DNA from: Heterodontus francisci
Taxonomy: Eukaryota
Assembly (NCBI RefSeq): GCF_036365525.1
Contig: NC_090380.1
Coordinates: forward strand, 79,485,784-79,549,783
Length of the DNA stretch: 64,000 nucleotides
Direction: 5' to 3'
Under the pieces are notes generated by a model. It did no database searches, was not told the DNA's origin, and saw nothing but the letters and a program-made list of their open reading frames with translations. Both the position numbers and the translations under genes were made by a program. The stretch's first letter is position 1; every line of letters starts with the position of its first letter. Positions 1,831-60,845 of the stretch are shown here, in pieces.

Positions 1831-1921
1831 CACACAGAGGAATTTCAATCATTTGATGTACAACTTCCTGTTAATAGTCTTGTGTATTTCATGATTATTT
1901 GGACCACTTAATAACTGACCA

Positions 1922-2674
1922 AATGGATGCTGGAAATCTGAAACACTAACTGAAAATGCCGGAAATACTCAGCAGATCAGGCAGCATCTGTGGTGGGAAA
2001 AGCAGAATTAACGGGTGGAATTTTGTGCTGGCAGCGGGGGTCTCGACTTGGTGGGAAACCTATACTGAGATCCTCACGTTGGCTCTTGTACGGAAGGCCC
2101 ACCGAATTTAATGCCAATCAGGCACTTAACTGAACAGCGGCAGGCCTTCTGTGCGATTTAGTACCCTGCCATCGGAAGTCACGGCCATGCAGAGCTGCTG
2201 GCCAATCAGAGGCCACCAAGGAGCGGCGCTGGAACCAGCCTCAAGGTACGTCAAGGAGGGAGGGGCTCGTGGGATGGGGGGACGGGGGGTCGGCAGAAAG
2301 GGCAGGGGTTGGCCCTCAGCGGACCCCCCCCCCCTTCCCGATGCCAGGTCCCTCATTCAGCCTTTGAACGAGGGACCCCCCACCCCCACCTGCAGCTGGG
2401 AAGCAGCCCACATGGTTTACTCGTGCTGTGCTTCCTGTGCGACGACAGGATCTCCTGTCACATGGCTAATTATGGCTCCAGCGGGAAGAGGCCCTTAATT
2501 AGAGGTTAATTACCCAGTTAAGGCTCTCAATTGGTGGTGTGTGGGAAGGCCGTTCACGGGCCTTCCCGCCCCAGAGTAAATTTCGGTGGAGGCATAAAAT
2601 TCCACCCAGTGTTACAAGTCGATGTCCTTTCATCAGAACTACCTGACCTGAGAATTTCTAGCATTTTCTATTTG
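1922..2674 (-). mobile_element. Penelope-type mini-element split by a MITE
   Basis: aaaatgccggaaatactcagcag...[MITE]...cctttcatcagaac. Flanked by the direct repeat ATAACTGACCA (1911-1921 / 2675-2685). Confidence 0.7.
2013..2607. mobile_element. GC-rich MITE (non-autonomous TIR DNA transposon, Harbinger-like)
   Basis: Perfect 12-bp TIR GGGTGGAATTTT...AAAATTCCACCC. Internal motifs are shared with the copies at 49995, 53841 and 59351. Confidence 0.75.
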
Positions 2675-2964
2675 ATAACTGACCAGTTGGGTATTTGATT
2701 CTCAAACAAACCAGTATGGATTCTAATCCCAAAGTTTCCTATTACTTGAATACAATTGTCTAAATTGAATGAATTTGAGCAATTATTAATTTACCTATCA
2801 AATAGAAGAGTGCACAAGCACAATATTTCAGATGTACATCAGTTCCTAGTGTACATGGGCTTAGAACGCAAAACTGTTCCTGATTTGGCACCAATCAGCA
2901 ATCCGAGAGGACATAGGTTGGCTGATGTGGGAAATGAACAAAATGGCAGCTTGTGGTAGTAGCT

Positions 2965-3853: not shown

Positions 3854-5675
<1,822 letters not shown>

Positions 5676-11426: not shown

Positions 11427-11458
11427 ATGCCAAGAAATCCAACTAAGACATGACGGAA

Positions 11459-11695
11459 AAAAAGCAAAATACTGCAGGAAATCTGAAATAAAAACAAAAA
11501 ATGCCGGAAACACTTAGCAGGTCTCACAGCATCTATGCAGAGAGAAAGACTTAACATTTCAGGTCTGTGACCTTACATTAGATCTGTTCTATTCCGATGA
11601 AAGGTTACAGACCTGAAACGTTAACTCTGTTTCTCTCTCTGCAGATGCTGCCAGTTCAGCTGTGTGTTTTCAGCATTTTTCTGTTTTTATAAAAG
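11459..11695. mobile_element. Penelope-type mini-element, palindromic (two inverted arms)
   Basis: Arm ~11485-11580 is the approximate reverse complement of ~11592-11690. Hammerhead-like core at 11594-11627. Flanking ATGAC/TGGAA repeat (11450-11458 / 11696-11704). Confidence 0.75.
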
Positions 11696-13744
11696 ATGAT
11701 GGAATTTAGCTCCGCATAGGCAAGTGAATTAGGTATTTAGACTTGGGCCTACAACGCATTTGTTCAAACTACAGTCTACATTTAACCAGTTGAGGAATTC
11801 AGAATTTTCGCACAAATCTTTTCTTTAAACATAGGGGAGCAGACCCCGGCCATGGTGAAAAGCATACCATGTAAACCTAAAATAGACAAATATCAAAACC
11901 TCAAAATTCTGTGTGCTGGCGGAATTCTAGTGGAATTGCGGTGAGGGGTTTTAATTTATCTCCCCTGATTTTTCACTTTATTAAACTATTTCACTGGGGG
12001 TAGGATAGAGGTTGGCAGGAGCTGCTTCTGTCCACTTCACTCAACGTCAATCTGAGAGGAGGTGTCAGTCCCATTCTGGGCACAGTGAAGGCCCTGAGAG
12101 TACAAAGTCCAGTGGTAATCGATCACCGTGTTGCTGAATGGCCCTGCCATTCAAAAGAATAAATTTCAAAAGGTTTTGCTTTTCCTGCAGATCCGAGCCT
12201 CTGCTTCATCCTCTTAGAGCAACAAGGAACCATTTTGAGTTCCTCCAGCTGCACCTCTACCAGCGCAGATACCCGCCCCTATTGTTTAAATGATCCAGTT
12301 CTTGGAATTTGGGTGGGGGCATTGCGGGAGCAGAATTTCTGTCCCACTACACTTCTGGCAGTGTAGGTTTGCTGTGGGTTTTCTGTGCTCCAGTCTCTAG
12401 AAATTACTTTAACTGGGCTGACGTGAGAAACAAAGGACAGTGTCGCATCTGGATGACTGTGGTTCAATTTGTGAAGTTGAAATCATTTTGACCTTCTTGC
12501 CACTGTAGCAGTGTTTCATGTATTCCTGACAAGGGTCCAACATGAAGTTCTTCTTTACCCTTAGAATGGTACAGAAACACTTGATACCATACGGTAGTCA
12601 CATTTTCTGTGGACTACTTGGAATGTTGTTGATGGTGCTGAAGTAAAATTGTTGCCACTGCAACACAGTTCCAAAAATAAGAATTAATCTGCCACAATAT
12701 TTTTTTCCAGATTGTATGCCTAGGTTCAAGTTTCCTTTGACAGACTACAAATATATATTTTAACACACCAATTAGAAAAGAACAATATCTTGCTCCTTAG
12801 TTTCTGATTATTTTAATGGGATCCTTTTATTTTGTGTAAATGTTGGGTGTGCTGTTGTTTTTAAGAATCTGAGTTTTTCTTTTCATCGTTCTACAGTGCC
12901 TCAATGCATCTTGTAGCTGTGTATGTAAACTGGGTTGTTTCCTCTGTAGAAAATACCCTATTAACAGATTTCAAACAATAAAATACAGGACAAATTCATA
13001 TATGCTAATTTGACATCAGCAGCTTTCTGATATAAGCACATTGTATTTGGTTCCAACTCATTCTTAACTACAATCAAAACAATTTGAAGAGATTTCAGTA
13101 AATTCTTGTTATGCACGCAGATTATCTGACATATTGCTTGCTGTAGGATTCAATTATAAACAACATGACTCCAACTAAGAACCAAATTTATAACTCAATA
13201 TGAATTATGTCCATTTTAAAGCTTGGCCACCTCCACACCATTCTTGAGGGTCAAGGTATCTGCACTGCTGAAAAAAACAGATGTGTGGAATGTTTGCTCT
13301 GCAAACTAGGTAGATGCTTCAGACTGTCAACCAGCTCTGCACTTGGATGGTAGATGAAACTATGATAAGGTGCAAAGCACCATTACTACACAGGAAATCC
13401 ACAAGCTTAGAGGTAGTTCCACTCATATAAACTCACCGCAATTAAGATGCTTTTGAAAGTTCTTTTAAACCACACTGAAAACATACTGCAAACAGCGAGA
13501 AATGCGTTATGCCACACGGAAGTTCACACAGTTTCAAAGCATCTTCACAATAAGTTTTATTATAATTCAGATGGGATCAGTGGTTATAGATATTGGAACT
13601 AGAATGTAAGGTGGAAGGGTGATATATTGAATCAGTTAAGCCATATGTGGATTGAAGAAAGGTATGACTGAAAATTAGCATTTTGTAAACAAAACTAATA
13701 TTTTGTTAAAAGCACATTTTTCAGGGGGAAAAAAGGTTAAACTC

Positions 13745-14044: not shown

Positions 14045-14398
14045 TTTTATTTTATTTAGAGATACAGCACTGAAACAGGCCCTTCGGCCCGCCGAGTCTG
14101 TGCCAACTATCAACCACCCATTTTATACTAATCCTACGCTAATTCCATATTCCTACCACATCCCCACCTGTCCCTATGTTTCCCTACCACCTACTAATAC
14201 TAGGGGCAATTTATAATTGCCAAGTTACCTATCAACCTGCAAGTCTTTGGCATGTGGGAGGAAACCGGAGCACCCAGAGAAAACCCACGCAGACACAGGG
14301 AGAACTTGCAAACTCCACACAGGCAGTACCCAGAATTGAACCCGGGTCGCTGCAGCTGTGAGGCTGCGGTGCTAACCACTGCACCACTGTGCCGCCCC
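14045..14398 (-). mobile_element. HE1-type V-SINE
   Basis: Reverse complement gggcggcacagtggtgcagtggttagcacc (A box), gggttcaattc (B box), V-domain gtgtctgcgtgggtttctctgggtgctccggtttcctcccaca, and CR1-type tail gtgctgtatctctaaa. Very similar to 58008-58342. Confidence 0.85.
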
Positions 14399-16042: not shown

Positions 16043-16164
16043 ACACCTAATAGTGCCACACAATAGACTTGTTAGAACAATTGAAGCCCATGGGATTAAA
16101 GGGACAGTGGCAGAGTGGATATGAAATTGGCTAAGAGACAGAAAGCAGATTGTAGTGGTGAATA

Positions 16165-16306
16165 AAAACATAATTTCCGAAGAAGGGTCACTGACCCGAA
16201 ACGTTAACTCTGCTTCTCTTTCCTCAGATGCTGCCAGACCTGCTGAGTGGTTCCAGCATTTCTTGTTTTTATTTCAGATTTCCAGCATCCGCAGTATTTT
16301 GCTTTT
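16165..16306 (+). mobile_element. Penelope-type mini-element (142 bp) with 16-bp TSD
   Basis: Perfect TSD ATTGTAGTGGTGAATA (16149-16164 / 16307-16322). Core CCGAAGA-A-GGGTC-act-GACCC-GAAA-CGTTAACTC. Confidence 0.85.
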
Positions 16307-18639
16307 ATTGTAGTGGTGAATAGTTGCTTTTCAAACTAGAGGGGGGTATTCAATGCTGTCTCCCAGTAGTTGGTATTAGGACCACTGATGTTTATCATAT
16401 ATATTAATGACCTGGACTTGGGTATCAGAGCATTATTTCAAAGTTTGCAAATGACATAAAAGTCATAGTAAACAGTGAAAAGGATAGTAAGAGACTTCAG
16501 AAGGACATGGACTGGTGAAATGGGCAGACTGATGTCAGATAAACTTTAATGCAGAAAAGTGTGAGGTGATGTATTTTGGTGGGAAGAATGAAGAGAGGCA
16601 ATATAAACTGAATGGTACAATTTTTAATGGTGTGCAGAGAAACCTGGAGATGTACATACAAAAATCATTGAAGGCCACAGGACAGGTTGCAAAGTCTGTT
16701 TAAAAAAAGCATACAGGATCCTTGATTTTATGTACAGAGGAATGGACTTCAAAAGCAAGGAAATTATGCTAAATATAAGTCACTGGTTAGGCCCCATTTG
16801 AGGTATTTTGTTCAATTTTGAGCATCACACTTTAGGAACAATCTTGAGGCCTTAGAGAGGGTGCAGAGGAGATCTACTAGAATTATATCAGGGATGCGGG
16901 ACTTTAGTTACTTGGAAAGATTAGAGAATATAATTTTCTGGGATAATTTTCCTTCCAGCAGAGAAGGTTAAGGGGAGATTTAATTGAGCGGTTCAAAATC
17001 TTGAAGGGTTTTGACAGAGTAAACAAGGAGAAACTGTTTCCAGTGCCAGGTGGGTCTCTAACCAAGGATGCAAATTTAAGGTAATTGGCCAAAGAAACAG
17101 AGGTGAGATGAAGAAAAAATTGTTTTCATAGCGAGTTGTTATGATCTGGAATGCACTACCTGAAAGGGTGGTGGAAGCAGATGCAAAGTAACTTTCAAAA
17201 GAATATTGGATAAATATTTAAAGGGGAAAAGTTTGCAGGGCTCTGGGTAAAGGGAAGAGGAGTGGAAATGATTAGATAGCACTTTCAAAGAGCCACTACA
17301 GGCACGATGGGCCGAATGACCTCCTTCTGTGCTGAATCATTCCATGATTCTGTGATGACAATTCTCCTTGTTTCTGGTCTGAGCCTTCTGCTCTTCAAAT
17401 AGATATCATGGCATCTTTTATGTTCACCTAGTCAGGCAGATGTGGCAGAGAAGAGTGATACCTGAAATCACTTGTCCAGCAAATCTGGTGATGGATGGTT
17501 AACCTAGTTGTGAACCAGGTATGCTAATGATTGTGCCCCTTCAACTTGAAGGAGCAAAAATTCTGGCCATTCCAGGAGAAACAACCAGGATGGGGACAAG
17601 AGCATCAAAGGTGAGGTAAAGAAATGACAGAGCTCATTGACAGCTCCAGAGTATCATATTAAATGGAAGGCAAAAGGCTAGGCAGTTGGTGGCTTAAGAA
17701 TGCAATCATAAAGTGACTTGGTAAAGAGTTTTTTCCAAGGTGGATGCAGAAAGAAGTTGGGTTGGTAGGGGGCAGAAGGATGTTTCTAGTGAGGGATAAA
17801 AGGAAAGGGTCAGAGATGGTTTGATGTATGATCAAGATGATGGAGCAGAGAGGCTATGTGAGATTGCAAGGTCAATAGGTATCCAGGAATAAGGATAGGA
17901 GAGTTTATATGGCGGAGAAGTTTAGGAAGCACAGGAAAACAGTAAACTCAGAGGACTGGGCAAGCTGCATTCAGATGGAGAGTGAATTCACCAAGGATGA
18001 AGACTTGCTCAGTGCAGAGGTTGGGAGGAAAGGAGGGGGTATATCTTGGTGGGGTGGGGGACAGGACAAATTTGGGATGGGAATTGCCAATGCCATTCTG
18101 CCATCTACAAGGCACAAATCAGGAGTGTGATGGAATACTGTTCACTTGTCTGGATGAGTGCAGCTCCAACAACACCATCCTGACTTGGAAATATATTGCC
18201 ATTCCTTCAGTGTCACTGGGTCAAAATCCTGAAACTCCCTATCTAACAGCACTGTAGGTGTGCCTTCACCACACAGACTGCAGTAAGTGTCTGCTTATAA
18301 GTTCTCAAGTAAGACCCCAATTAAGACCCTCCACCTGCATATAATCAAACAATTGAGACGCAATTAACAGATTAATATGGATTTGGGAGCCAGAAGCACA
18401 TTTGAGGACTTTGGAGAAGAAAGGGGGAGTGGGTTGGAGATCAGCTGGTAGTTTGCAAGGATGGAGGGGATCAAGGATTTTTTTTAGGAAAGGGGCCATG
18501 ACAGCAGATTTGAACGTGAGAGGGACAGTACCTGACGAGAGAGAACGTTAACAATATCAGCTAACATGAGGCACAGGAAGAGAAGTTGGTTGGTCAGCAA
18601 TTTGTTTAATGTAAAGTAACCAATGCATTGATTTATTGT

Positions 18640-18768
18640 ATAATAAAATCAATAAGTGCTGGAAAATACTCAGCAGGTCTGGCAGCATCTGTGGAGGGAG
18701 AAGCAAAGTTGACGTTTCCGGTCAGTGACCTTTCATCAGAACCGTTCTGCACTATTTTGTTTTTATTT
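18640..18768 (-). mobile_element. Penelope-type mini-element with 14-bp TSD
   Basis: TSD CA(T/C)TGATTTATTGT (18626-18639 / 18769-18782). Minus strand reads CTGATGA-A-AGGTC-act-GACCG-GAAA-CGTC. Confidence 0.8.
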
Positions 18769-19069
18769 CACTGATTTATTGTGATAGGAATACCTTGAAG
18801 TTGCAACAAAACATTTGAAGTCAGTTCCTATGCCTTGTGAAGTCAGGTGTTATTGTCTAATTACTGCCATCACCCTGCAAGCATCTCAATAATGATTTAG
18901 TAATTGGAGTCATCATTGTCGCTCCAAAACCACAACCAACATCTGGTATCATTACCTGGATGTTGATCAGTGATATCGCATTAAGCAATCTTTAAGTGTT
19001 TGCCTTGGCTCTCCACATTCACATTTGACATTTCTCACCTTCCACTTGGTCATATTATCACCAATCTTT

Positions 19070-22000
19070 GCAATATTAAGTTTGAAAGTGACATACTCAA
19101 GTCCAATACAAGAATCTTAAACTTAAACAAAGCCAATTATGTGGTATGAGGGGGGAGCTAGCTAAGATTGATTGGGTAAATAGACTAAAAGGTATGGCGG
19201 TAAATAAACAGTGGGAAACATTTAAAGAAATAATTCAAAATGTTCAACAAAAATACAGTCCATTGAAAAACAAAAACTCAGCGAGAAACATCCATCTGTG
19301 GCTTACTAGGGAAGTTAAGGATAGTAATAGATTAAAAGGAGAGGCATATAATGTTGCAATGAATATTAGTGAGCCTGAGGCTTTGGAGAGGTTTAAACAC
19401 CAGCAAAGGGCAACCAAAAAGTTGATAAAAAGGAAAAAATTACAATATGTGAGTAAACAAGCCAGGAACATAAAAACAGATTGTAAGAGCTTTTACAAGT
19501 ATATTAAAAGGAGAGTAGCTAAAGTAAATGTTGGTCCCTTAGAGGCAGAGACAAGAGAAATTATCATGGGGAATGAATGGGCAGACACTGAACAAATATT
19601 TTAAGTCTTCACAGTAGAAGACACACATTACACACCAGAAATCTTCTCCTTCTTCTTCTTCTTTGGCCTCCTTGTCTCGAGAGACAATGGGTAAGTGCCT
19701 AGAGGTGGTCAGTGGTTTGTGAAGCAGCACCTGCAGTGGCTATAAAGGCCAATTCTAGAGTGACAGACTCTTCCACAGGCGCTGTAGATAGAATTGGTTG
19801 TCGGGGCTGTTACACGGTTGGCTCTCTCCTTGCACTTCTGTCTTTTTTCCTGCCAACTGCTAAGTCTCTGCAACTCGCCACTCTTTAGCCCTGCCTTTAT
19901 GGCTGTCCGCCAGCTCTAGCGATCACTGGCAACTGACTCCCACGACTTCTGGTCAATGTCACAGGACTTCATGTTGCGTTTTCAGACGTCTTTAAAGCAG
20001 AGACTTGGACTCTGATACCAGTGACGCACTCGCTGTACAATGCGTCCTTGGTGATCCTGCCATCTTCCATGCGGCTCACATGGCCAACCCATTTCAAGCG
20101 CCGCTGGCTCAGTAGGGTGTATATGCTGGGGATGTTGGCCGCCTCGAGGACTTCCGCGTTGGAGATACGATCCTGCCACCTGATGCCAAGGATTCTCCGG
20201 AGGCAGCGAAGATGGAATGAGTTGAGGCATCGCTCTTGGCTGACATGCGCTGTCCAGGCCTCGCTGCCGTAGAGCAAGGTACTGAGGACACAGGTTTGAT
20301 ATACTCGGACTTTTGTGTTCTGTGTCAGTGCACCATTTTCCCACACCCTCTTGGCCAGTCTGGACATAGCAGCGGACGCGTTTCCTGTGTGCTTGTTGAT
20401 TTCTGCATCTAGAGACAGGTTACTGGTGATAGTTGAGCCTAGGTAGGTGAACTCTTGAACCACTTCCAGAGCATGGTTGCCAATATTGATGGATGGAGCA
20501 TTTCTGACGTCCTGTCCCATGATGTTCGTTTTCTTGAGGTTGATGGTTAGGCCAAATTTGTTGCAGGCAGCCGCAAACCTGTCGATGAGACTCTGCAGAC
20601 ACTCTTCAGTGTGAGATGTTAAAGCAGCATCATCAGCAAAGAGAAGTTCCCTGATGAGGACTTTCCATACTTTGGTCTTTGCTCTAAGACGGGCAAGGTT
20701 GAACAACCTGCCACCTGATCTTGTGTGGAGGAAAATTTCTTCTTCTGAAGATTTGAACGCATGTGAGAGCAGCAGTGAGAAGAAGATCCCAAACAGTGTA
20801 GGTGCGAGAACACAGCCCTGTTTCACACCACTCAGGATAGAAAAGGGGTCTGATGAGGCGCCGCTATGCTGAATTGTGCCTTTCATATTGTCATGGAATG
20901 AGGTGATGATACTTAGTAGCTCTGGTGGACATCCGATCTTTGCTAGTAGACCATGTGTGCTGACGAGGTCAAAGGCTTTGGTGAGATTTATGAAAGCAAC
21001 GTAGAGGGGCATCTGTTGTTCGCGGCAGTTCTCCTGTAGCTGGCGAAGGGAGAACAGCATGTCAATGGTGGATCTCTCTGCTCGAAAGCCACACTGTGCC
21101 TCAGGGTAGACACGCTCAGCCAGCTTCTGGAGTCTCTTTAAAACGACTCGAGCAAAGACTTTCCCCACTATGCTGAGCAAGGAGATTCCACGGTAATTGT
21201 TGCAGTCACCACAGTCACCCTTGTTCATATGGAGGGTGATGATATTGTCATCGCGCATGTCCTGTGGTAATGCTCCCTCATCCCAGCACAGGCAAAGCAG
21301 TTCATGGATTGCTGAGAGTATAGCAGGCTTGGCACTCTTGATTATTTCAGGGGTAATGCCGTCCTTTCCAGGGGCTTTTCCACTGGCTAGAGAATCAATG
21401 GCATCACTGAGTTCCGATTTTGTTGGTTGTATGTCCAGCTCATCCATGACTGGCAGAGACAGGGCTGCATTGAGGAAATAGAGGGTTACCAAAGGGCCAA
21501 TCAGAGTGAGGAACTTAAAATAATTAATTTCAGCAGAGAAATAGAGAAACTTAAGGAATTAAAAGCCAACAGATCTCCAGGATCTGATGGCCTACATCCT
21601 AGGATTCTAAAAGAGGTAGCTGCAGAGATGGTGGATGCACTGGTTATGAGTGTCCAAAATTCCTTCGATTCCAGAATGGTTCTAGCAGATTGGAAGTTAA
21701 CAAATGTAACACTGCTATTTAAGAAAGGAGGGAGAGAGAAAAACAGGAACAACAGGCCAGGTAGCCTGACATCAATTGTTGAGAAAATGCTGGAACCTAT
21801 TATTAAGGAAGTCTTAACAACGCACTGAAAAAATCATAGTATGATCAGACAGCGTCATGAAAGGCAAATTGTGGTTGACAAATTTATTAGAGTTTTTTGA
21901 GGATGGAACTAGTAGCGTTGTTAAAGGGGTACCAGTAGATGTAATGTACTTGGATTTTCAAAAAGTATTTGTTAAGGTGCCACACAAAAGGTTAGTATGA

Positions 22001-22982
22001 AAAATAAGGGCTCATGGAGTTGGGGCAATATATCAGCGTTGATGGAGGATTGGTTAACAGACAGGAAGCAGAGTGGGATAAATAGGGCATTTTCAAGTTG
22101 GCAGGCTGTAACTAGTGAAGTGCCACAAGGAATAGTGCTGGGGCCTCAGCTATTAATAATCTATATTAGTGACTTAGACGAAGAGACCGAGAATAATATA
22201 TCTAATTTTGCTGATGATAGAAAGCTAGGTGGGAATGCAAGCTGTGACGAGGACACAAAGAGGCTGCAAAGAGATATATACAGGTTAAGTGAGTGGGCAA
22301 CAAGGTGGCAGATGGCGTATAATGTGGGGAAGTGTGAGGTTATTCACTTAGGTTGTAAGAAAAGAAAAGCAGAATATTTTTTGAAAAAGGCATGAAACTT
22401 TTAAATGTTGATGTTCAGAGACTCTTGGGTGTACTTGTACAAGAAACACAGAAAGTTAGCATGCAGGCACAGCAAGCAATTAGGAAGTCAAATGGTATGT
22501 AGGCCTTGATTGCAAGGGGACTGGAATACAAGAACAAGGAAATCTTGCTACAATTGTATAGGGCTTTGGTGAGACCACACCTGGAGTACTGTGTGCAGTT
22601 TGTACTCCATATCTAAGGAAGGATAGAGAGTGAAGGTTTACTCGATTGGTTCCTGGGATGAGAAGGTTGTCCTATGATGAGAAGCTGAGTAAATTGGGTC
22701 TATACTCTCTGGAGTTTTGAATCATGGGAGGCAATCCCATTGAAATATACAAGACCCTGAAGGGGCATGACAGGGTAGACACTGAGAGGTTGTTTCACAT
22801 GGCAGGGGTGATTAGCCTCAGGATTAGGGTCAATTATTTAGGACTGAGATGAGGAGAAATTTCTTCACTCAGAGAGTTGTGAATCTTTGGAATTTTTTAC
22901 CACAGAGGGTTGTGGATGCTACATCATTGAGTATATTCAAGGCAGGGATAGATAGATTTTTGATGTCTCGGGGAATCAAGGT
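19070..22982 (+). mobile_element. CR1 LINE ORF2 (decayed), split by an RTE insertion
   Basis: WETFK..IKTDCKSFYKYIK, SPGSDGLHPRILKE, VPQGIVLGP..FADD, RRNFFTQRVVNLWN. Confidence 0.85.
19643..21474 (-). mobile_element. 5'-truncated RTE-clade LINE with an open RT frame
   Basis: About 500 aa open frame: GKAPGKDGI, NNYRGISLLSIVGK, QCGFR, GVKQGCVLAPTLF, LLFADD, FTYLGS, LLYGSE. (GAA)n-type tail. TSD GAAAT (19638-19642 / 21475-21479). Confidence 0.9.
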
Positions 22983-23639
22983 GAATGAACAGTGTTTGTT
23001 GTCATTATGCTTAGAGTTGCCAACAAAATTCCTGTGGGCTTTTACATTCAGATTTACAGTAATCAGACAATCAAATCAGTGCAGCGCTATCTACAGGATA
23101 TCTGGGACCTGTGTGCAGGAGATAAACAATCAGATTGAAGAATCCTCACTGAGATTAGCATGAGTTTAAAACAGGAAGTGCAATTTAGAATAGTTAATTC
23201 AATGTAAAATCATGTACAGAAAGCCAACTACAGATGAGGAAAGAAATATGGAATTAAGAGAGGCAAGTAAAAAAGACAGAAAAAAAAGTATTTTTCAAAA
23301 CCTTCAACATTAATTAAAATCTGAAGGAATGAGACTCCACACTTGTAAAATTTAATTTTCAGCACCAGAGAGGTTGTTTGGCAGCAATTAAGACTGATCA
23401 CAGTTTAAAAAAATTTACTTACACTTGAATGGATACACTCTAACTGTGTGACATCTTTAGTGGGTATCTGATGGGTAAATAATGCAACCTCATGCCCTTC
23501 TTGTGCTTTAATGCTGAATCTATCAGCAAGGTACAGATGTAGTGAAGCTTGTGGAAGAGAAAGGCAACACGGACAGCAACCTCCTGATTTCCACATTTAA
23601 CTGCGCTGTGACCCCCAAGATGAGCTTACGATCTCATGT

Positions 23640-24315
23640 TCGTGCCATCACAAAGACTACCTATTTCAAGCTCTGTAACATTGCCTGATCTCACCCTTGT
23701 CTGTGCTCATCTGGTGCAATCCTCATTCTTGCCTTTGTTATCTCTATACTTGACTATTCCAGTGCATTCCTGGCTGGTCTCCCACATTCTCTGCTCCATA
23801 AACTTGAGGTTATCCAAAGCTCAGCTGCCCATGTCTTAACTTGCACCAAGTCCCATTCCCCTGTCACGCCTGTGCTTGCTGACCTACATTTGCTCCTGGT
23901 CAAGCAATGTTTTGATTTTAAAATTCTCATCCCTGTTTTCAAATCTCTCCATGGTTTTGCCCTCCCCATCTCTGCAATCTCTTCCAGCAGCACAATGCCC
24001 TGAGGTATCTACACTCTTCTAATTCTGGTCTCTTGTGCATCCTCGAATTTAATCCCTTCACCTTTGGTGGCTGCGCCTTCAGTTGTATCGGCCCTAAGCT
24101 CTGGAATAATCTTCCTACACCTCTCCAGCTCTCAACCTCACTTGCCTCCTTTAAGACACTCTTAAAACCTACCTCTTTGACCAAGCTTTTGGTCATCTGA
24201 CCTAATATCTTCTTATGTGGCTCGGTGTCATATTTTGTTTTATAATGTTCCTGTGAAGTGCCTTGGGATGTTTTATTATTTTAAAGGTGCTATATAAATA
24301 TAAGTTGTTGTTGTG
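23640..24315 (+). mobile_element. L2 LINE 3' end
   Basis: LDYSSAFLAGLP..FKILI..LWNNLP..FKTLLKTYLF motifs; tail aaaggtgctatataaatataagttgttgttg. Confidence 0.8.
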
Positions 24316-25469
24316 TGGAGGCTGGAAGTTGCTGTCTGATTTACTACTTGAGAACAGTGAGTGCTGACAGCCTAAGTGTTATTTCTATCACAAAATCCAG
24401 GGCATTATCTTGCTCCATCCTTGCCAGTATTTCTTTGCATCAGTACAGAATTTCTCTTTAATAACTATTACTTTCCTTCTTGATCATATATGTTATATGC
24501 TGCTACTTTACAGTAATAGTCATAATTTATCTTTATGTTCTTCTTTAAGCCATCCAACTTGTTCCTGATTTCCTGCCAAGCTCTTTAATTATGGAGGAGG
24601 CAGTAAGCATGCTGATTTCTCATTGAAAGAGTGAATTCTATGACCATTAGAAGACTTGGCAGGAAGTCATAAAGATGTTGAATATCTTCATCAGCCAGAA
24701 TCTGATCAAGACCCTCCAGTACAGAGATCTCAAGGCTGAGTCAATAAATTGTACTTTTCTCAATTGTCATTGAGCCATCCACAAATATTTAACATCGACA
24801 GCTGCATTAATGATTTTTTGGCATTTGTACTGGTTAAGTGATTTATTAGATGCTTCAGAAGAATTAAAGGACGAATATTGCAGACGTACCATGAATAGTT
24901 GCTCTTATTTTGTTATCGCTGACAGAATACTTTCTCAGGAAGTGGCAAGGAACAATGCCATAATTTGCTTTTCAGTTAAAATGCCCATTCTTTGAGAAAT
25001 TAGGAAGACAGAGCTCTAGTATTCAGTGTTTATTGCAATTAATGACACTTTTATTACTTAACAATTAGAAATCATGAAAACCACACATGGAAGATTCATT
25101 GCCAAGACAATGATACTGTTGGAGTAAAAATGCATCTTCCCAGCAGCAGCAATGATGAGTTGCTAGCCTGCTGACCACGAAGAATATAAATAATATGTTG
25201 GTCTGATATAGACAGCTTTATACTCATAGGAAGTAAAGCTCACATAGCATGCATCCATGTTACCAATCACTTGAAAGACATCTTAAAGAGAATTATATCC
25301 TTGGTGATCTGCTCAGTAAGTTGGTTGTTCTTTACATTTATAAGTGTGGAATTTAAACACCCACCTCCTTCCCTTTTACATCTCATGAACAACTCTTAGG
25401 TTTAATACGTTTCCAAAAATGCCATAGGTAAAAGATTCCAGCCACCATCCTAGTTTTTCAGATATAACA

Positions 25470-25955
25470 TTTTTTTTTATTCATTTATGGGATGTAGGCA
25501 TCACTGGCTAGGCCAGCATTTATTGTCCATCCCTAATTGCCCTTGCGAAGGTGGTGGTAAGCTGCCTTCTTGAACCGCTGCAGTCCATTTGGGGTAGGGA
25601 CACCCACAGTGCTGTTAGGAAGGGAGTTCCAGAATTTTGACCTAGCGACAGTGAAGGAACGACGATATAGTTCCAAGTCAGGATGGTGTGTGACTTGGAG
25701 GGGAACTTGCAGGTGGTGGTGTCCCCATGCATTTGCTGCCCTTGACCTTCTAGGTGGTAGAGGTCATGGAAGGTGCTGTCTAAGTAGCTTTGGTGCATTG
25801 CTGCAGTGCATCTTGTAGATGGTACACACTGCTGCCACTGTGTGTCGGTGGTGGAGGGAGTGAATGTTTGTGGATGAGGTGCCAATCAAGTGGGCTGCTT
25901 TGTCCTGGCTGGTGTCGAGCTTCTTGAGTGTTGTTGGAGCTGCACCCATCCAGGC
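25470..25955 (-). mobile_element. LINE family B 3' fragment
   Basis: MGAAPTTLKKLDTSQDKAAHLIG..HSLHHRHTVAAVCTIYKMHC plus the family tail. Confidence 0.8.
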
Positions 25956-26079
25956 GACATAAAAGCATCTTGACTAATATAATTTATTTGATTCTTTCTT
26001 GCTGTCACATGATACAGAAGGCTACAATTGGTTACATTGGAGTCTGCCCGGCTCTGTAGTAGCACTTTTTGCTCTGAGT

Positions 26080-28110
26080 CAGAACATAGGAAAAGGAATA
26101 GGTTATTCGGGTCCTCAAGCCTGTTGCTCCTTGCAATTAGATTATGGCTGAGCTGTACCTTAAACCTATTTGCAAAACTTTATTGATCTCAGTCTTGAAC
26201 TTTCAATTGAGCCAGCACGTACAGCCTTTTGTGGGAGGAGAATTCCTGATTTTCACTACCTTGTGCATGAAAAGGTGACTCCTGCCTTTACTGCTAAATG
26301 GCTTAGCACAAATCCTAAGATTGGGCCCCCTTGTTCTGATTACCCGCCAAAGGAAATCATTTATTAATTCTATTGAATTATTTTATAATTTTAAATACCT
26401 CAATTAGATCATCCCTCAACCTTCTGAACTGAAAGGGATACAAGCCACGTTTATGTAACCTACCTTCAGAATTCAGCCCTCTAAGCCCTGATAATGTTCT
26501 AGTTAATCTGTGTTCTACCTGCTCCAAGACTAGTATATCCTTTCTGAGGTGTATTGCCCAAAACTGAGCATAATACTCTAGTTGGAATTTGACCAAGGCT
26601 CTGTGCAACTGAGGCATAACTTGGATATTGGAATACAGAGTGAAATTTTAAAATTTGCCAATGATAACAAACTTGTAGTTGTGGCAAACAGTGAGAATGT
26701 TACTAATCAACTGCAACAGGACATTGATAGGCTAGCAGAATGGGCAGACAAGTGGCAGATAGAATTTAATAAACAGAAGTATGAGGTGATGCATTTTGGC
26801 AGAGGGGATAGGGAGAGGCAATATAGACTTAATTAAAGTTCTGAAGACTGTACAGGAACAGAGGGATCTAGGAGTTCATGTGCATAGATCTTGGAAGGTG
26901 GCAGGACATATTGAGAGAGTGGTTAGCCAAGCATGTTACATCTTGGGCTTCATAAATAGAAGTATTGAGTAGAAATGCAGGGGGGCTATGCTGAACCTTT
27001 ATAAAGAGCTGGCTGGGCCCCAACTAGAGTATTGCGTCTAGTTCTGGTTGCCACACTTTAGGAATGATGTGAAGGTCCTGGAGAGGGTGCAGAGGAGATT
27101 TACCAGAATGGTTCCAGGGAAGAGGGATCTTAGCTATAAGGTTAGCTTGGAGAAGCTGGGGTTGTTCTTCCTGGAGCAAAGGAGGTTGAGGGGAGATTTA
27201 ATAGAGGCGTTCAAGATTATGATAGGTTTCGATAAAGTAGACAAAGATAAGCTGTTCCCATTAGATGATCATACAAGGACTAGGGGATACAGATTTAAGG
27301 TTTTGGGAAAGAGATGGAGGAGGAATGTGAGGAAAAACATTTTTCATGTCGCGAGCGGTAATGACCTGGAACTTGCTGTCTACAAGGGTGGTGGAAATGG
27401 GGATGAGCAATGATTTCAAAAGGAAATTAGATGGGCAATTGAAGAAAATCAACTTGCAGGGCTACAGGGATAGAACAGGGAAATAATATGGACTGGATTG
27501 CACTACAGAGAGCTGGCATGGACTTGATGGGCTGAATTGCCGCCTTCTGTGCCATTATGACTCTATGACATTCCATGAGGCACTTGGAATACTTTTTGTA
27601 CCTGTGCACTAGCTTTTATTGATTTGTGTACACAGCCAAATGTTTGCTCCTCCACAGTACCTACTCTTTCCCCACTTAGAAAGTATTCTGATTTGACCTC
27701 ACATTGAACTCCATCTGCAACAGTCTGCCAACCACTTAATCTGTCCATGTCCCTTTGAAACTTTATGCTCCCATCTTGACACATTACTGTGCTTCCCAAC
27801 TTAGCGTCATCTGCAAACTTGGATATACAGCTATCTATTCCTTCATCGAAGTCACTAATACATTTAGAAAACCCTGGGGAGCACCTCTTATCACATCAGA
27901 GAATGTTTCCTTTTTTCCTACTCTCTGTCTCCTGCCTCCCAACCAATTATCAACCCATTATCACAAGTTTACCTGAAACTCTGTGAACTCTCATTTTTGC
28001 TAATGACACATTGTATGGAAGCTTATCAAAGCTTTCTGAAAGTTGATATAGATAATATCCATTCCATGTCCAACACGCTTGTAACCTCCCCAAAAAATCC
28101 AACTAAATTA
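26080..28110. mobile_element. Cluster of three CR1 fragments (- 26080-26610, + 26612-27570, - 27590-28110)
   Basis: LEYYAQFW..LRDDLIEVFKI (-); KFANDNK..LQQDIDRLAEWADKWQ..LERVQRRFTRMVPG (+); FQRDMDRLSGW (-). Confidence 0.75.
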
Positions 28111-28389
28111 GGCAACGATAGCAACAACTTGTGTTTATATAGACCCAGGGTTGTGGGGCTGGAGGAGGTTACAGAGATAGGGAGGGGCAAGGCCATGGAG
28201 GGATCGAAAGAAAGGATGAGAAGTTTTAAATCCAGGCATTACTTAATTGGGAGCCAATGTAGGTCAGCGCATGCAGGAGTGATGTGTGAATGGGACTTAC
28301 TGTGAGTAAGGACACAAACAGGAGAGTTTTGGATGACTGTCTGCTCTTACTACTTTCATTAAAACCTTTACGATTAGCTTTGACATCCC

Positions 28390-28912
28390 TTGTTGCAGTT
28401 CATCTGGTGCAGGTACACCCACAGTGCTGTTAGGAAGGGAGTTCCTGGATTTTGACCCAACAACAGTGAAGGAACAGTGATATATTTCCAAGTCAGGAAT
28501 AGTGTGTAACTTGGAGGGGAAGTTGCAGGTGGTCGTGTTCCCATGTGCCCGCTGCTCTTGTCCTTCTAGGTGGTAGATTTACGGGTTTGAAAGATGGAAG
28601 GAGCTTTGGAAACTTGATGCAGTGCATCTTATAGATGGTACATTCTGTGTGCTGGTGGTGCAGGGGGTGAATGTTTAAGGTGCTGGATGGGGTGCCAAGC
28701 AAGCTGGCTGCTTTGTCCTGGATGGCGTCAAGCTTCTTGAATGTTGTTGGAGCTGCACCCATCCAGGCAGGTGGAGAGTAATTCCATCATGCTCCTGAAT
28801 TGTGCCTTGTAGATGGTGGACAGGCTTTGGGGTATCAGGAGGTGACTTACTTGCTGCAGAATTCCCAGCCTCTGACTGGCTCTTGTAGCCACAGTATCTA
28901 TATGGCTGGTCC
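28390..28912 (-). mobile_element. LINE family B 3' fragment
   Basis: MGAAPTTFKKLDAIQDKAASLLG..TIYKMHC. Confidence 0.75.
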
Positions 28913-28914
28913 AA

Positions 28915-30727
28915 TGGCAGGACAGGTGTTATGTTTCAGCTGTGGTATGTTCCGGACGACGGTCACACCTCTTAGAACAGGGTCATCTGTTTTAGTCAGC
29001 AGTGAGGGATAGGAGGATGTGACCATGAGTGAGGCAAGTAATGGGACTGAGCAGACTGTAGTGGAGGAGCAATTGTCAAACAGGTTTGAGGTTCTCTCAA
29101 CCTTTCTGTCCGAAAGCGAGGTCTGCAAGGTGGATGAGCAGACTGGCCATGGCACTGTGGTACAGAAACCATTCAAGTGGGGGGAGCAAAAAGGAATGTA
29201 GTGGTATTAGGGGATAGTGTAGTGAGGGGGATTAACACTGTTCTGTGCAGCCGAGAGCATGTGTCCAGATGGCTGTGTTGCCTACCTGGTGCCAGGGTTC
29301 AGGACATCTGCTCAGGGCTGGACAGGAACTTGGAGTGGGAGGGAGAGGATCCAGTTGTCGTGGTCCATGTAGGTACCAATGACATAGGCAGGACAAGGAA
29401 AGGGGTTCTGCATAGACAGTATGAGGAACTAGGCACCAAATTAAAGAACACAATCTCAAGGGTAATAATCTCTGGATTATTATCTGAGCCATGTGCCAAT
29501 TGGCAGAGGGCACCTTAGATTAATAAAATTAATACGTGGCTCAAAGGCTGGTGTGGGAGAAGTGTGTTTCAGTTCATGGGGCACTGGCACCAGTACTGGG
29601 GAAAGTGGGGGCTGTACCGTTGGGACAGTCTGCACCTGAACCGTGCTGGGACCAGTGTTCTAGCAAACCACATGACTAGGGAAGTAGAGAGGGCTTTAAA
29701 CTAAATAAGGGGGGGGGGGGGGGGTGGTGAGGGATCAAGCCTGGGTAGAGTCAAGGCAGGAGAACAGAATAGTAACATGGGAAATGTAGATCAGAGAATG
29801 GCAGAAAGAGACAGAGAGAAAAAAACTTAAGAACACACCAACAGTCAAGACTAGATGCTACAAAGATAACAAAAAGACAAAACTAAAGGCTCTGTATCTG
29901 AATGCACGCAGCATTCATAACAAAGTAGACGAATTGATGGCGCACATTGAAGTAAATAAATATGATCTGATAGCCATTACGGAGACGTGGCTGCAGGATT
30001 ACCAGGATTGGGTCCTGAATATTGTGGGGTATATGACATTCAAGAAGAAAAGGAAACTAGGTAAAGGTGAAAGGGTAGCACTGTTAATTAAGAATGGCAT
30101 TGGTACATAAGTTAGAGATGCCTTGGTTCAGGAGATCAGGAATGTGATGCTGCAACTGTATAAAATGCTGGTTAGGCCACAGCTGGAGTATTGTGTACAG
30201 TTCTGGTCACCACAATACAGGAAGGACATAATTGTTCTGGAGAGTACAGAGGAGATTTACAAGAATGTTGCCAGGGCTTGAAAGCTGCAGCTATGAGGAA
30301 AGATTGGATTGGTTAGGGTTGTTTTCCTTAGAGCAGGCTGAGGGGTGACTTAATTGTGATGTACAAAATTATGAGGGGCCTAGATAGAGTAGACAGGAAG
30401 GACCTGTTTCCCCTAGCGGAGAGGTCAATTACTAGGGGGCACGGATTTAAGGTGATTGTTAGAAGGATTAGAGGGGACATGAGAAAAAACATTTTCACCC
30501 AGAGGGTGGTGGATGTCTGGAATTCACCGCCAGGAATGGTGGTGGAGGCAGAAACCCTCAACTCATTTAAAAGGTACCTGGACATGCACCTGAGGTGCTG
30601 TAACCTCCAAGGCTACGGACCAGGTGCTGCAAGGTGGCATAGGATTGGGTGGCTAGTTTTTTCGGCTGGCGCAGACATAATGGGCTGAATGGCCTCCTTC
30701 TGTGCCGTAATTTTTCTATGGTTCTAT
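28915..30727 (+). mobile_element. Internally deleted CR1: ORF1 (SGNH esterase), start of endonuclease, then 3' end
   Basis: LSNRFEVL; VVVLGDSVVRG, CLPGARV, VVHVGTNDIG and HLN (SGNH blocks); LYLNARSI..IAITETWL; jumps near 30140 to [13 protein letters not shown] and a tail like that of 9456-10420. Confidence 0.85.
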
Positions 30728-30729
30728 AG

Positions 30730-33000
30730 CTTGGCACTTAGATAAACTCGGGAATAGTCAGCATGATTTTGTGAAAGGGAAATCATGTTTTTTGAAGGAG
30801 TAACATGTGCTATGGATAAAAGGGAGCCCATTGACGTAATGTACTTGGATTTCCAGAAGGCATTTGACAAGTTGCCACATAAAAGGTTATTGTGCAAAGT
30901 AGGAGCTCATGCTGTAGGGGGTAACATATTAGCATGATAGAAGATTGGCTGGTTGGCAGAAAACAGAGTATGCATAAATGGGTCCGTTTCTGATGGGCAG
31001 AATGTGATGAGTGGATTCCTGCAGGGGTCTGTGCTAGGGCCTCAACTTTTTACAATTTATATCAATGACTTAGATGAGGGGAGCGATGGCATGGTAACTT
31101 TGCAGATGCCACAAAGATAGTTAGGGCAGTACATTGGGAAGAGGACATAAGGAGGTTGCAGACCGATACAGATAGGTTGAGTGAGTGGGCAAAAATCTGG
31201 CAGATGGAGCATAATGTGGGAAAATGTGAAGTTGTTCACTTTGGCAGGAAGAATAAAAAAGCAGAGTATTACTTAAATGGAGAACGACTGCAGAATTCCA
31301 AGATGCAGAGAGATCTAGGTGTTCTAAGTGCACGAGTCACAAAAAGTTGGTATTTAGGTACAGCAAGTAATAAAGGAGGCTAATGGAATGCTATCCTTTA
31401 TTACGAGAAGAATAGAAAATAAAAGTAAGGATGTTATGCTTCAGTTATACAGGTCATTGGTGAGACCACATGTCGAATACTGTGTGCAGTTTTGGTCTCC
31501 TTATTTAAGGAAGGATGTAAATGCATTGGAGGCGGTTCAGAGGAGGTTAATCGATTGATACCTGGAATGAGTGGGTTGTCTTATGAGGAAAGGTTGGAGA
31601 GACTGAGCTTGTTTTCACTGGAGTTTAGAAGAGTGACGGAAGACTTGATTGAAGTTTATAAGATCCTCAACAGTCTTGACAAGGTGAATGTGGAAAGGAT
31701 GTTTCCTCTTGTGGGTGAATCCAGAACTAGGGAGCACTGTTTTAAAATTAGGGGTCGCCCTTTTAGGACAGAGGGGAGGAAAAATGTTTTCTGTCAGAGG
31801 GTTGTGCGACTTTGGACCTCTCTGACTCAGAAGGTGGTGGAGGCAGGGTCATTTAATATTTTTAAGGCGGAGGTAGATAGATTCTTGTTAGGCAAGGGAA
31901 TCAAAGGGAAACAATCGGGGGTGACAAAAACCACACCTGCCAAAATGAAATATATTAATTTTGTCATATGGAACATTATTTTTGAACTGTTGCTGGACAT
32001 TGAACAAACTTGTTTAAAAAGACCACAGAAGAGTGGCTGAAAACATGGCTGGACATTTGCATTCTGAAAGACAGTTGCATGGAGAGACAATGGGAGTACT
32101 CCCGAATTCAATTAGCCAGATTGGTTTTGTCAATAGTGATGATCAAGAGACAATGAGAGTCATTGAATGTGTAAGAGCCAGCATTCCACCCTACCCTGCA
32201 CCGCTCCCCCACCCCCGCACCCACCCAGAGTGTCTGGTAAGCTGTGATGAATCCACAAACCTCACAGGCGAGGCTGTCTCAAACAAATAGCTGTCAAATG
32301 ACTAACCTGCTGGCCAACCTGGAGTTAATTGAATTGTGCTCACAGAACAGTTTTGGAAGAGACTGCAATTGAACTTCAAGAAGAGAGCACTCCCTCTCTC
32401 TCTCTCTCTCACACACAAAGTTCCAGGGACCCACCGAAGTAACTTAAGCCTCAAGACAGAAGACCAGAAAAACAAGTTTGAAAGTGTGCACTGGGCCCCA
32501 ATGAGAACTGCAAGACTTAACTTCAATGAAAGACTTTACATCCAACCCAAAACCAGTAACGGAACTCCATCTATTACTTCAAACCTTTCCCCTTTAATTC
32601 CTTCTCCTCCTGTGTACCTATTTGCGTGTGTGTTTATCACACATACTTGCTAGTGTGGTCGCGTCGCATACTTTTAGTAGTTTTAACTGAGTTAGAGTTT
32701 AACTGAGTTAGTGTAAGTTAATAAATTTACACCCTTGTTTAAATCTGAGAAAACCTGAGTGATTGATTTCTTTGCAATTACAATTAGAGAGCAGTGAGCA
32801 AGGTCTCACTGAAGGGAAGCTAAAAACACAGTTTTAAAAGTTAAACCCTGTTATGGCCAAACCAGGAAAAGGCTGAGAGGGGACAGGGGTAGATGGGAGT
32901 GTGGAATTCGAGACACAAACAAATCAGCCATGATCTTATTGAATGGCTGAGCAGGCTAGAGGGGCCAAATGGCCTACTTCTGCTCTTAATTTGTATGTTT
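30730..33000 (+). mobile_element. CR1 LINE RT and 3' end, interrupted by a solo LTR
   Basis: [37 protein letters not shown] motifs. The 3'UTR resumes at 32886. Confidence 0.85.
31922..32885 (+). mobile_element. Solo LTR-like insertion (~0.96 kb)
   Basis: TG...CA ends flanked by GGGG on both sides, interrupting the CR1 3'UTR. AATAAA near 32720. U5-like segment resembles that of 55152-56184. Confidence 0.65.
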
Positions 33001-33129: not shown

Positions 33130-35160
33130 TATCAGCCTTTTGGGCAGTGCAGAACCGATCATAACAACTCACTATGTAATTTTTATTTTCCCCGTGCCAC
33201 CTCTGGTTCTTTTGGCAATTACCTTAAATTTGTGTCCTCTCGTTGTCAAACATTAGTCACTGGAAACAGTTTCTCCTTATTTACTCTATCAAAATCCTTA
33301 ATAATTTTGAACACCTTTATCAAATCTCCCCTCAACCCTACATAGAACTATAAATACGGAAATAGGCTATTCAGTCCAACTGGTATATGCAAGTGGTAAT
33401 GCTCCATACGAGCCTCGTCACACCCTATTTCATTAAGTTCTAAATGCATATCCTTCTGTTCCTTTCTCTTACATGTACGTATTTAGATTCACCTTAAATG
33501 TATCTATGCTATTTGCCTCAATTACTCCATGTGGTAATGTGTACCACATTCTCACCACTCTGAGAAATTATGTTTCTCCTGAATTCCTTAGTGGATTTAC
33601 GAGTGACTATCTTAAATTTATTGCCCCTAATTCTGGTCCTCCACAAGTGGAAACATCTTCTCTACATCCACCTTATCAAATCCCATCACAATTCCAAAGA
33701 CCAGTACCATGTCACTCCTCAGCCCCCTGCCTTCTAGAGAAAAGAGTTCCAGCCTGTTCAATCTTTCCTGCTATTTAATAAGCTGTATTTCCATTGGGCT
33801 AATAAGAATCGTATCTGCTCAAAGGAGAAAAATCCAAGCTTCTCTAGTCTCTCCACATAGCTGAAGTCCCACATTCCTGGTACCATTTTAGTAAATCTCC
33901 TCTGCACCCTGTCCAAGACCTTGACATCCTTCCTAAAGTGTGATGCCAAGATTTGGACATAATACTTCTGCTAGGGCCTAGCCAGTGTTTACTAAAGGTG
34001 TAGTACAACTTCCTTGCTTTTGTACTCTATGCCTGTTTATAAAACAGATCGCGTGTGCTTTTTTAACAGCCTTCTCAACTTGTCCTCCCACCTTCAATGA
34101 TTTGTCTATACATCCCCAGCTCTCTGCGTTCTTGCACTCCCCACCCATTCAAATTGTACCATTTAGTTATATTGCCTCCCCTCAATCTTTCTACCAAAAT
34201 GAATTGCTTCAAACATCTCTGTGCTAAATTTCATCTGCCATGTGGCTGCTCATTTCACCAGTCTATGTCCTCCTAAAGTCTGTTAATATCCTTCTCGCTA
34301 CATTTCCGAGTTTCATGTCATCTGCAAACTTTTAAATTATGCCATGCATACCCAGGTCATTAGTATATCTGAGAAACAGTACTGCTCCTAATACCGACCC
34401 TGGGCAACACCACTGTATATTTTATTCCAGTCTGATAAGCAACCATTCACCACTACCATCTGCTTTCCGTCCCTTAGCCAATTTTGTATCCACACATCCA
34501 TTGCCTCTATAATTTCTTCAGCTGCAGAAGTTCCGAAGAAGGGTCACTGACCCGAAACGTTAACTCTGCTTCTCTTTTCACAGATGCTGTCAGACCTGCT
34601 GAGTGGTTCCAGCATTTCTTGGTTTTATCTTAGCCTTTAACAACTGTATCCTGGCTTTCGTTTATTAACCCATATTTTTCCAAGTGCCAATTAATTTTTT
34701 TCCTGGGTCATTGTCTCTAAAAGTTTCCCAACCTCCGCCATCAGGCTGACTGGCCTGTAGCTACCGGGTTTATTCCAAGTGTAATTTTTGTCTTTAATTA
34801 GTGTGTACTAGGCAATTGTTTTGTTTTTATTGAATCAAGAGCCTCTTTAAATACTATTATTTAACTATTAACAGCTACGCCCAGTTTACTGTGGTCAATT
34901 CATTTTTCACCTTCTGCAGTTACCTTACTTAAATTTAAAACCCTAGTCTGTGACTCTTGTTTCTCCCTTTCAAACATAATATAAAATTCACTCCTATTAT
35001 GTCACTATTCACAAGATATTCTCTTACAGCCAGATTGTTAGCCAATTCTGGTTTGTTACTCATTACTAAATCTATTATAGCATTCTTCCTTGATAGTTCT
35101 AAAATATATTGGTCCAGAAAATTGTCCTGAATAAATACTAGAAATTCATTGCACGTAATT
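33130..35160 (-). mobile_element. Patchwork of decayed CR1 fragments
   Basis: SHFRKDVKVLDRVQRRFTKMVPG, FADD-region sequence, NEFL..QDNFLDQY..IDLV endonuclease C-terminus. Confidence 0.7.
34530..34628 (+). mobile_element. Penelope-type mini-element
   Basis: Near-identical to 16175-16272, including CCGAAGAAGGGTCACTGACCCGAAACGTTAACTC. Confidence 0.8.
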
Positions 35161-48949: not shown

Positions 48950-49053
48950 ATGCTGGCGGTATGAACCTAAGCGACCCTAAGTTGTGTTACATTCTGGATG
49001 GAATTCTCTTTGTGTATGGGATTATAATCACTGGTCTCTACCTTAAGCTGAGG
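48950..49053 (+). CDS. CD247: CD3-zeta (CD247) transmembrane exon (exon 2 equivalent)
   Basis: Acceptor ttttgacag|A and donor AGG|gtaagt. 104 bp, phase 1 to 0. Encodes (D)AGGMNLSDPKLCYILDGILFVYGIIITGLYLKLR, which aligns without gaps to mammalian zeta [34 protein letters not shown] and keeps the dimer Cys, the TM Asp and the Tyr/Thr pair. DPKLCY/DGIL and the longer ectodomain favour zeta over FcR-gamma. Confidence 0.9.
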
Positions 49054-60746: not shown

Positions 60747-60845
60747 TAAAAACAGAAAATGCTGGAAATAATCAGCAGGTCCAGCAGCATATGTGGACAG
60801 AGAAACAGAGCCAACGTTTCAGGTCGATGACGCTACATCAGAACC
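60747..60845 (-). mobile_element. Penelope-type mini-element inside Gypsy
   Basis: aaaaacagaaaatgctggaaat..cagcaggtc..aacgtttcaggtcgatgac..catcagaac. Confidence 0.7.

Follow-up and report, generated by a model that had tools for sequence, protein, structure and literature searches.

What was inserted at positions 16165-16306 of the window (the whole 64,000-nucleotide stretch of Heterodontus francisci DNA analysed here), and does it belong to a self-contained non-coding family or to the end of a longer retroelement? The insert was 142 bp long and lay between identical 16-mers, which bears out the description of a mobile insert with a perfect 16-bp target-site duplication in an earlier, sequence-only reading. 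None of 1500 random flank pairs shared a string longer than 12 nt. The duplication and a short inverted stub at its left edge were placed as follows:

16149-16164, plus strand: left target-site duplication, 16 bp, identical to 16307-16322
16307-16322, plus strand: right target-site duplication, identical to the left 16-mer
16161-16170, minus strand: inverted stub, 10 nt, a perfect reverse complement of 16264-16273 with its end at the proximal 3' terminus of the element

Four of the ten stub nucleotides lay within the left duplication, and a match of at least 10 nt to the reverse-complemented element was found in 9 of 3000 random 22-mers. The first three and last four nucleotides of the left duplication also fit the two termini of the element, which leaves a few bases of uncertainty in the true stagger. 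ATT began or adjoined the start of the duplication on both strands at this one locus.

When the flanks of the insert were joined, they formed an unbroken alignment to a LINE paralogue at 34513-34352 (77% over 163 nt); the insert therefore sits in an older LINE, presumably a CR1-like one. RT fragments were what Pfam showed for LINEs in the window. Most LINE paralogue reads carried GA at 16150-16151, where the focal locus has TT, so the initial ATT of the duplication is particular to the focal target copy. A contig of run X1, which may be the source sample, covered the 3' junction (16286-16422) with no differences. An empty orthologous site was absent among the 15 read or contig joints listed, with 343 further joints in the set.

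Using the focal copy alone, nhmmer recovered six other copies in the window (E 4.6e-27 to 1.5e-13). The six loci that had been called related copies were all homologous, with pairwise identities of 68-87% over aligned pieces; the copies themselves number seven, since 11459-11695 is a head-to-head inverted pair. In addition to the focal insert, these loci were:

1911-2685, minus strand: related locus with an 11-bp duplication; minus-strand copy at 1925-2012 and about 2609-2640
11450-11704, no single strand: related locus, head-to-head pair, with a 9-bp repeat with one mismatch
18629-18782, minus strand: related locus with an 11-bp duplication; tailless minus-strand copy at 18642-18745 and inverted tail piece at 18746-18771
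34529-34628, plus strand: nearest relative of the focal copy within the window (94% over 104 nt), without a tail; duplication not found
60745-60848, minus strand: older decayed copy, without a tail or a credible duplication

Direct repeats of 9-16 bp had been reported for four loci. Three proved perfect, namely 16 bp at the focal insert, 11 bp at 1911/2675 and 11 bp at 18629/18772; the fourth, at 11450/11696, was a weak 9-mer with one mismatch. No direct repeat was found at the 34530 locus, and the 60747 locus contained only chance-level 8-mers with a mismatch. An inverted partner was found at the 5' end of four of the six loci: the 11459 pair, 18746-18771, 2641-2674 and the focal insert. These partners differed in quality, as 2641-2674 was weak (E 0.09) and the focal partner was the 10-nt stub. 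In three of the four partnered loci, the proximal terminus formed one end and the distal terminus the opposite one; the fourth was partial. Within the head-to-head pair, the minus-strand copy carried a tail (about 11457-11589) and the plus-strand copy did not (about 11590-11695). The copy at 1911-2685 was interrupted inside its hammerhead by an element with terminal inverted repeats at 2013-2607, and was accompanied by the weak inverted piece at 2641-2674 (pieces E 0.047 and 0.091). Altogether, four window copies ended at element position 16273-16279.

Several other features were observed in the window. The element at 2013-2607 was MITE-like, about 595 bp long, with terminal inverted repeats of at least 12 bp; it lay in the hammerhead palindrome of the 1922 copy and had partial relatives at 59464-59552 and 50138-50191. 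The 34529 copy adjoined a LINE paralogue about 55-70 nt from the focal-homologous insertion position, possibly by chance in a LINE-rich genome. A 529-aa open frame with RVT_1 and DUF6451 matches (19969-21558, minus strand) represented a young LINE-like copy whose 3' part recurred inverted at 57524-58550 (88-93%). An integrase zinc-binding domain fragment at 57317-57619 (minus strand) is probably an LTR retrotransposon remnant, and a tRNA-like match at 14321-14393 (minus strand; 27 bits, below the Rfam cut-off) is probably the head of a tRNA-derived SINE. A CD3 zeta transmembrane exon was found at about 48950-49053 (plus strand; Pfam TCR_zetazeta, E 2e-16), followed by a GT donor, and a large part of the window may belong to the introns or the upstream region of this gene. 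A decayed RRM-encoding stretch at about 3900-4700 (plus strand; Pfam RRM_1) resembled a processed retrocopy, which we assume to derive from an RBMX/hnRNP G-type gene.

The 5' part of the focal insert contained a candidate ribozyme:

16173-16209, plus strand: putative minimal type I hammerhead motif, in the register of Fig S3 of PMC4209133

In the focal copy, helix I (16173-76/16206-09) was 4 bp long with a mismatch from T at 16174, the core (16177-83) had C at position 4, and an extra A followed at 16184. Helix II (16185-89/16193-97) comprised 5 bp and was followed by GAAA (16198-201), the palindromic 15.2/16.2 pair, U16.1 (16204) and U17 (16205). The predicted cut falls between 16205 and 16206, after the GUU that directly follows GAAAC. 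Six copies were aligned over the motif; the seventh, split by the element at 2013-2607, was left out. All aligned copies had the order helix I, core, extra A, helix II, GAAA, palindromic C-G, U, H and helix I. Position for position, this family layout agreed with the minimal-hammerhead consensus of Penelope-like elements (PLEs), with both the extra base and H17=U in place (PMC4209133, Fig S3). The text of that paper calls the extra base and the palindromic 15.2/16.2 typical of PLE motifs, so the extra A had been wrongly counted among the departures from the canonical core. C4 occurs in none of the 56 PLE motifs published there. The core text described in the sequence-only reading held for three of the six aligned copies (16177, 34533 and 11594).

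The chosen register paired 87% of helix cells, versus 15-44% in slid controls. A cut at a later UC had been proposed, with a stem III/UH register. This register was rejected: its closing helix I pair was U.U in six of six copies, and its helix I pairs amounted to 62.5% versus 79.2% in the chosen register, where the predicted cut triplet is GUU. Covariation of stem II, which had also been put forward, reduced to a single pair differing between two subfamilies. One of nine helix pairs changed on both sides, and among six related copies only the covariation score did not exceed that of shuffles, 138 of 500 of which reached it; the score of the UC register was reached by 16 of 500. A descriptor allowing C4 was passed by one of seven copies, that at 34533, and gave no matches in 60 simulated windows. 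The focal copy failed it at helix I because of T at 16174, a position at which 98 of 137 covering reads had G.

An Rfam scan of the window returned two weak matches and no hammerhead at E up to 5. Folding of the whole element was no better than that of shuffles (z -0.3), and when monomer or dimer was folded freely the hammerhead fold was not obtained, the dimer being paired via helix II instead. The motif could work only as a dimer, for which cleavage was described by Lunse et al. (as cited in PMC6765202), or with help from protein. Judged on sequence, the focal hammerhead is probably inactive, given C4 and the helix I mismatch.

The anatomy of the family was examined in reads from 4 of 24 listed runs, X5 and X17 being the small-word-share runs used. 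Depth in run X21 was about 22,000-31,000 over most of the element and about 3 over 16328-16369, which suggests element copies of the order of 10^4 at 86% or more, a rough figure from a capture library whose baseline may include paralogues. Loose ends of reads and contigs defined three further features:

16175, plus strand: common 5' boundary of short copies, from read and contig loose ends
16210-16273, plus strand: terminal-repeat body, as far as the proximal 3' terminus, with 1,634 loose ends at 16273
16274-16309, plus strand: optional tail, 33-36 nt, to the distal 3' terminus, from 3' loose ends

Loose ends at 16175 were found in 11,865 reads, in 327 DNA contigs with varied flanks and in 57 contigs of a guessed RNA run, in which the element was present. 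At the distal terminus, 16306, 16308 and 16309 had 2,742, 2,594 and 5,281 reads, respectively; the last three nucleotides of the tail fall within the right duplication. Flanks of the 3' loose ends at 16273 and 16306-16309 were varied and AT-rich, and the two termini were 33-36 nt apart. In run X5, from a second organism, the distal terminus was shared, and depth was low over the 5' end of the hammerhead. Tail-to-tail inversion joints between the two termini occurred in 8 and 16 contigs; head-to-tail repeats, with 16306 joined to 16175, were seen in eight contigs, all from run X1.

Agreement of loose ends was 0.67 at 16175 versus 0.36-0.46 at the 3' termini; many reads therefore continue upstream into one shared sequence, by estimate roughly half of the reads with loose ends there. 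This run-on makes a shortened end of a longer element more likely than a self-contained family, and it counts against the separate non-coding 142-bp family first proposed. In both subfamilies the shared upstream sequence, known as 30-letter consensus ends, finished in a branch-point-like motif with YAG. A branch point with YAG is the acceptor consensus. The acceptor-like motif had no matches in the window.

C4 was present in three of the six aligned copies. At a read threshold of 86%, which favours focal-like reads, the 11,865 reads aligning up to 16175 compared with 1,501 reads of U4-type core clipped at 16182, as judged from the difference rows listed (140 further rows); this suggests that C4 is a subfamily trait. 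A U4C change considerably lowers activity in vitro and yet permits viroid infectivity (reviewed in PMC3088659), and U4C alone probably leaves the variant weak rather than dead. At 10.1/11.1, where G-C is usual in the motifs of PMC4209133, A-U occurred in one subfamily here and in one coelacanth motif there.

In Heterodontus francisci, gene models matched element-read peptides at 87-96%, and one catshark model did so at 82%, which identifies the family as a shark repeat. Several shark gene models contained such peptides (P0001, P0002, P0007, P0009 and P0010), including an RNF14 isoform and PIKfyve-like and peroxidase-like models, and several started at an ATG after the internal acceptor-like site at 16225-27; these cases represent exonisation or annotation artefact. 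Exact-pattern scans for further copies gave 0 and 0 matches in metagenomes and 0 in viral sequences. One match in a prokaryote genome (L001) was taken as chance.

A partner protein with RT and GIY-YIG domains and the same termini had been suggested as a search target. None was found in the window: Pfam on 128 of 178 window ORFs showed no RT or GIY-YIG gene linked to the element termini, the RT matches present being read as LINE-like, and PLE protein motifs had 0 matches in six frames; frameshifted remnants of a PLE ORF may still be present. Peptide searches (2 of 19 and 1 of 33 candidates, with 7 representatives) yielded 10 protein matches to element peptides, none with an RT domain. Apart from P0005, a repetitive protein (33%) taken as chance, these matches were interpreted as gene models, or as spurious ORFs that overlap the element. 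Absence of an RT/GIY-YIG open frame is expected for truncated copies.

Assignment to PLEs would thus rest on the RNA motif and the insertion anatomy rather than on protein. The anatomy comprised a tail within the 30-40 bp of PLEs between two 3' termini (16273 and 16306-16309), an inverted 5'-truncated copy by the 5' end of four of six loci, and short variable duplications (16, 11 and 11 bp perfect, 9 bp mismatched, two loci without). The minimal-hammerhead layout was present at the family level, with C at position 4 in three of six copies. Together these features support the broader proposal of the sequence-only reading, a PLE-related retroelement end with target duplications and a minimal hammerhead that is putative and dimer-only.

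The insert is likely to be the 3'-terminal module (pseudo-LTR end) of an endonuclease-positive shark PLE, copied into an older LINE. This module would consist of a minimal hammerhead, a short body and an optional tail. The cutting, priming, extension and gap-filling steps proposed for it are drawn from published PLE biochemistry. A PLE RT/GIY-YIG protein would cleave the two target strands at AT-rich sites with a stagger of about 13-16 nt, and reverse transcription would be primed within uncleaved RNA, where two start sites are separated by about 34 nt. Extension of one strand from the distal site, stopping just 5' of the hammerhead, would give the main copy with its tail; extension of the other by a few bases from the proximal site would give the inverted stub, and gap filling would produce the target duplication. 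The hammerhead would merely be carried along, without defining the ends of the focal copy. Since the predicted cut site is internal to every copy, self-cleavage did not set the ends, and the template would have been uncleaved.

For an anole PLE, the protein cuts and extends both target strands with a preference for ATT, RT starts at two internal sites separated by the length of the tail, uncleaved RNA is the dominant insertion substrate in vitro, and the hammerhead cuts only with protein present (PMC11167929). Published PLE insertions are truncated at the 5' end and adjoin an inverted copy, and a tail of 30-40 bp is often confined to one of their ends (PMC8557442, PMC3846280). Self-priming is an alternative published model for inverted ends (PMC3846280), and is an alternative for those found here.

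A point against the PLE-end explanation is a 5' boundary more sharply defined than would be expected from random truncation. It was shared by all six window copies with a preserved 5' end and by the 327 DNA contigs, and a self-standing non-autonomous family would account for it, its short copies starting near 16175, being transcribed themselves and relying on PLE protein for mobilisation in trans. Such a family would also fit the roughly 10^4 copies, the head-to-tail joints in eight contigs and the presence in contigs of the guessed RNA run, and in rotifers terminal repeats suffice for trans mobilisation (PMC3846280). It is nevertheless improbable, as an estimated half or so of the upstream loose-end reads enter one shared sequence, the additional bases on the 5' side of the boundary vary from copy to copy, tandem arrays were absent from the window, the hammerhead is minimal rather than canonical, and a cut at the internal site would cleave without releasing the unit. 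The term retrozyme-like, used in the sequence-only reading, fits poorly, as retrozymes are tandem repeats with canonical hammerheads. Less probable by far is a non-PLE origin from a SINE, a MITE or a LINE 3' fragment, with a hammerhead resemblance arising by chance. The missing partner protein, the non-significant covariation, the folding z of -0.3 and the lack of an Rfam match would fit such an origin. The full core and two helices in the published register, the 0 descriptor matches in 60 simulations, and the tail, inverted partners and variable duplications all speak otherwise, and no terminal inverted repeats or poly(A) end were seen in the sequence and no tRNA match at the loci.

The sharp boundary could also be a 3' splice site. 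Short copies would then derive from PLE RNA that had been spliced and whose first exon is very short, or RT would stop at the splice junction; long copies would derive from unspliced RNA. This variant refines the PLE-end explanation and does not oppose it; it is unlikely, if a serious candidate. The branch-point-like motif and YAG lie directly 5' of helix I in both subfamilies, two window copies have the same four nucleotides 5' of the boundary, unlike the run-on consensus, and at the protein level such a 4-nt leader would be compatible with a horn shark gene model. The 4-mer is post hoc and missing from the other four copies, the element is pyrimidine-rich with two more acceptor-like sites (16225-27 and 16275-77), and no donor or first exon was found. 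Distant PLEs have a 5'-UTR intron in common, and the intron of Penelope in D. virilis ends at the 5' end of helix I (PMC4209133); PLEs are, on the other hand, noted for intron retention (PMC3846280).

Among known systems, crocodilian 'Chompy' is a parallel. The metazoan PLE minimal hammerheads of Cervera and De la Pena 2014 (PMC4209133) were alike in type I layout, short helix I, the extra base between 9 and 10.1, the 5-bp helix II and palindromic 15.2/16.2, and in occurring mostly as single dispersed copies with some inverted pairs. Cartilaginous fish are absent from the 56 motifs of that paper, and the element here is from a shark. Endonuclease-positive PLE units (Craig 2021, PMC8557442; Arkhipova 2013, PMC3846280; Frangieh 2024, PMC11167929) shared the adjacent inverted copy, the one-ended 30-40 bp tail, short variable duplications, AT-rich targets and, as proposed for the insert here, 5' truncation and an uncleaved template. 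The window duplications of 9-16 bp are comparable to the 8-10 bp of rotifer PLEs (PMC3846280). Unlike those units, the window units were only 100-250 bp long, had no ORF seen and had a 5' end clustered at the hammerhead. The window copies do not allow assignment to a PLE clade (Poseidon, Neptune).

Non-LTR retrozymes (PMC7229834; 10.64898/2026.07.22.740005) were alike in being non-coding, with a type I hammerhead, a PLE terminal-repeat link and duplications longer than 4 bp. They consist of tandem repeats with a hammerhead per unit and circular RNA, and the hammerheads in the 2020 paper are canonical (PMC7229834), whereas here the motif is minimal and copies are single or inverted with rare tandem joints. 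The window contained neither a tandem array nor a canonical hammerhead with helix III and loop-loop contacts. One cartilaginous fish is included in the 2026 retrozyme survey (10.64898/2026.07.22.740005), whose supplements may list the present shark family, and a PLE expansion has been noted in the whale shark (10.1101/443036). Minimal hammerheads in PLE terminal repeats have been known since 2014, with thousands of lone copies in fish and amphibian genomes (PMC4209133). A literature search, with Repbase, Dfam and most subscription papers outside its scope, found no account of PLE hammerheads in sharks and none of a PLE motif with C4.

The value of the present family is mechanistic and modest, bearing on the role of the PLE hammerhead and on the formation of tails and inverted ends. 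A more specific version is tentative and, taken as a whole, unlikely: a recently amplified shark PLE subfamily of about 10^4 copies would have spread with an attenuated U4C hammerhead, both target strands would have been primed at two internal RT start sites, and the 5' end would have been set by a splice junction abutting helix I. If true, it would provide a genome-scale in vivo record of PLE tail and inverted-end formation and would argue that PLE spread either does not require cleavage or disfavours it. In a family that is young, abundant and flanked by clear duplications, thousands of natural insertion junctions are available for testing the in vitro model.
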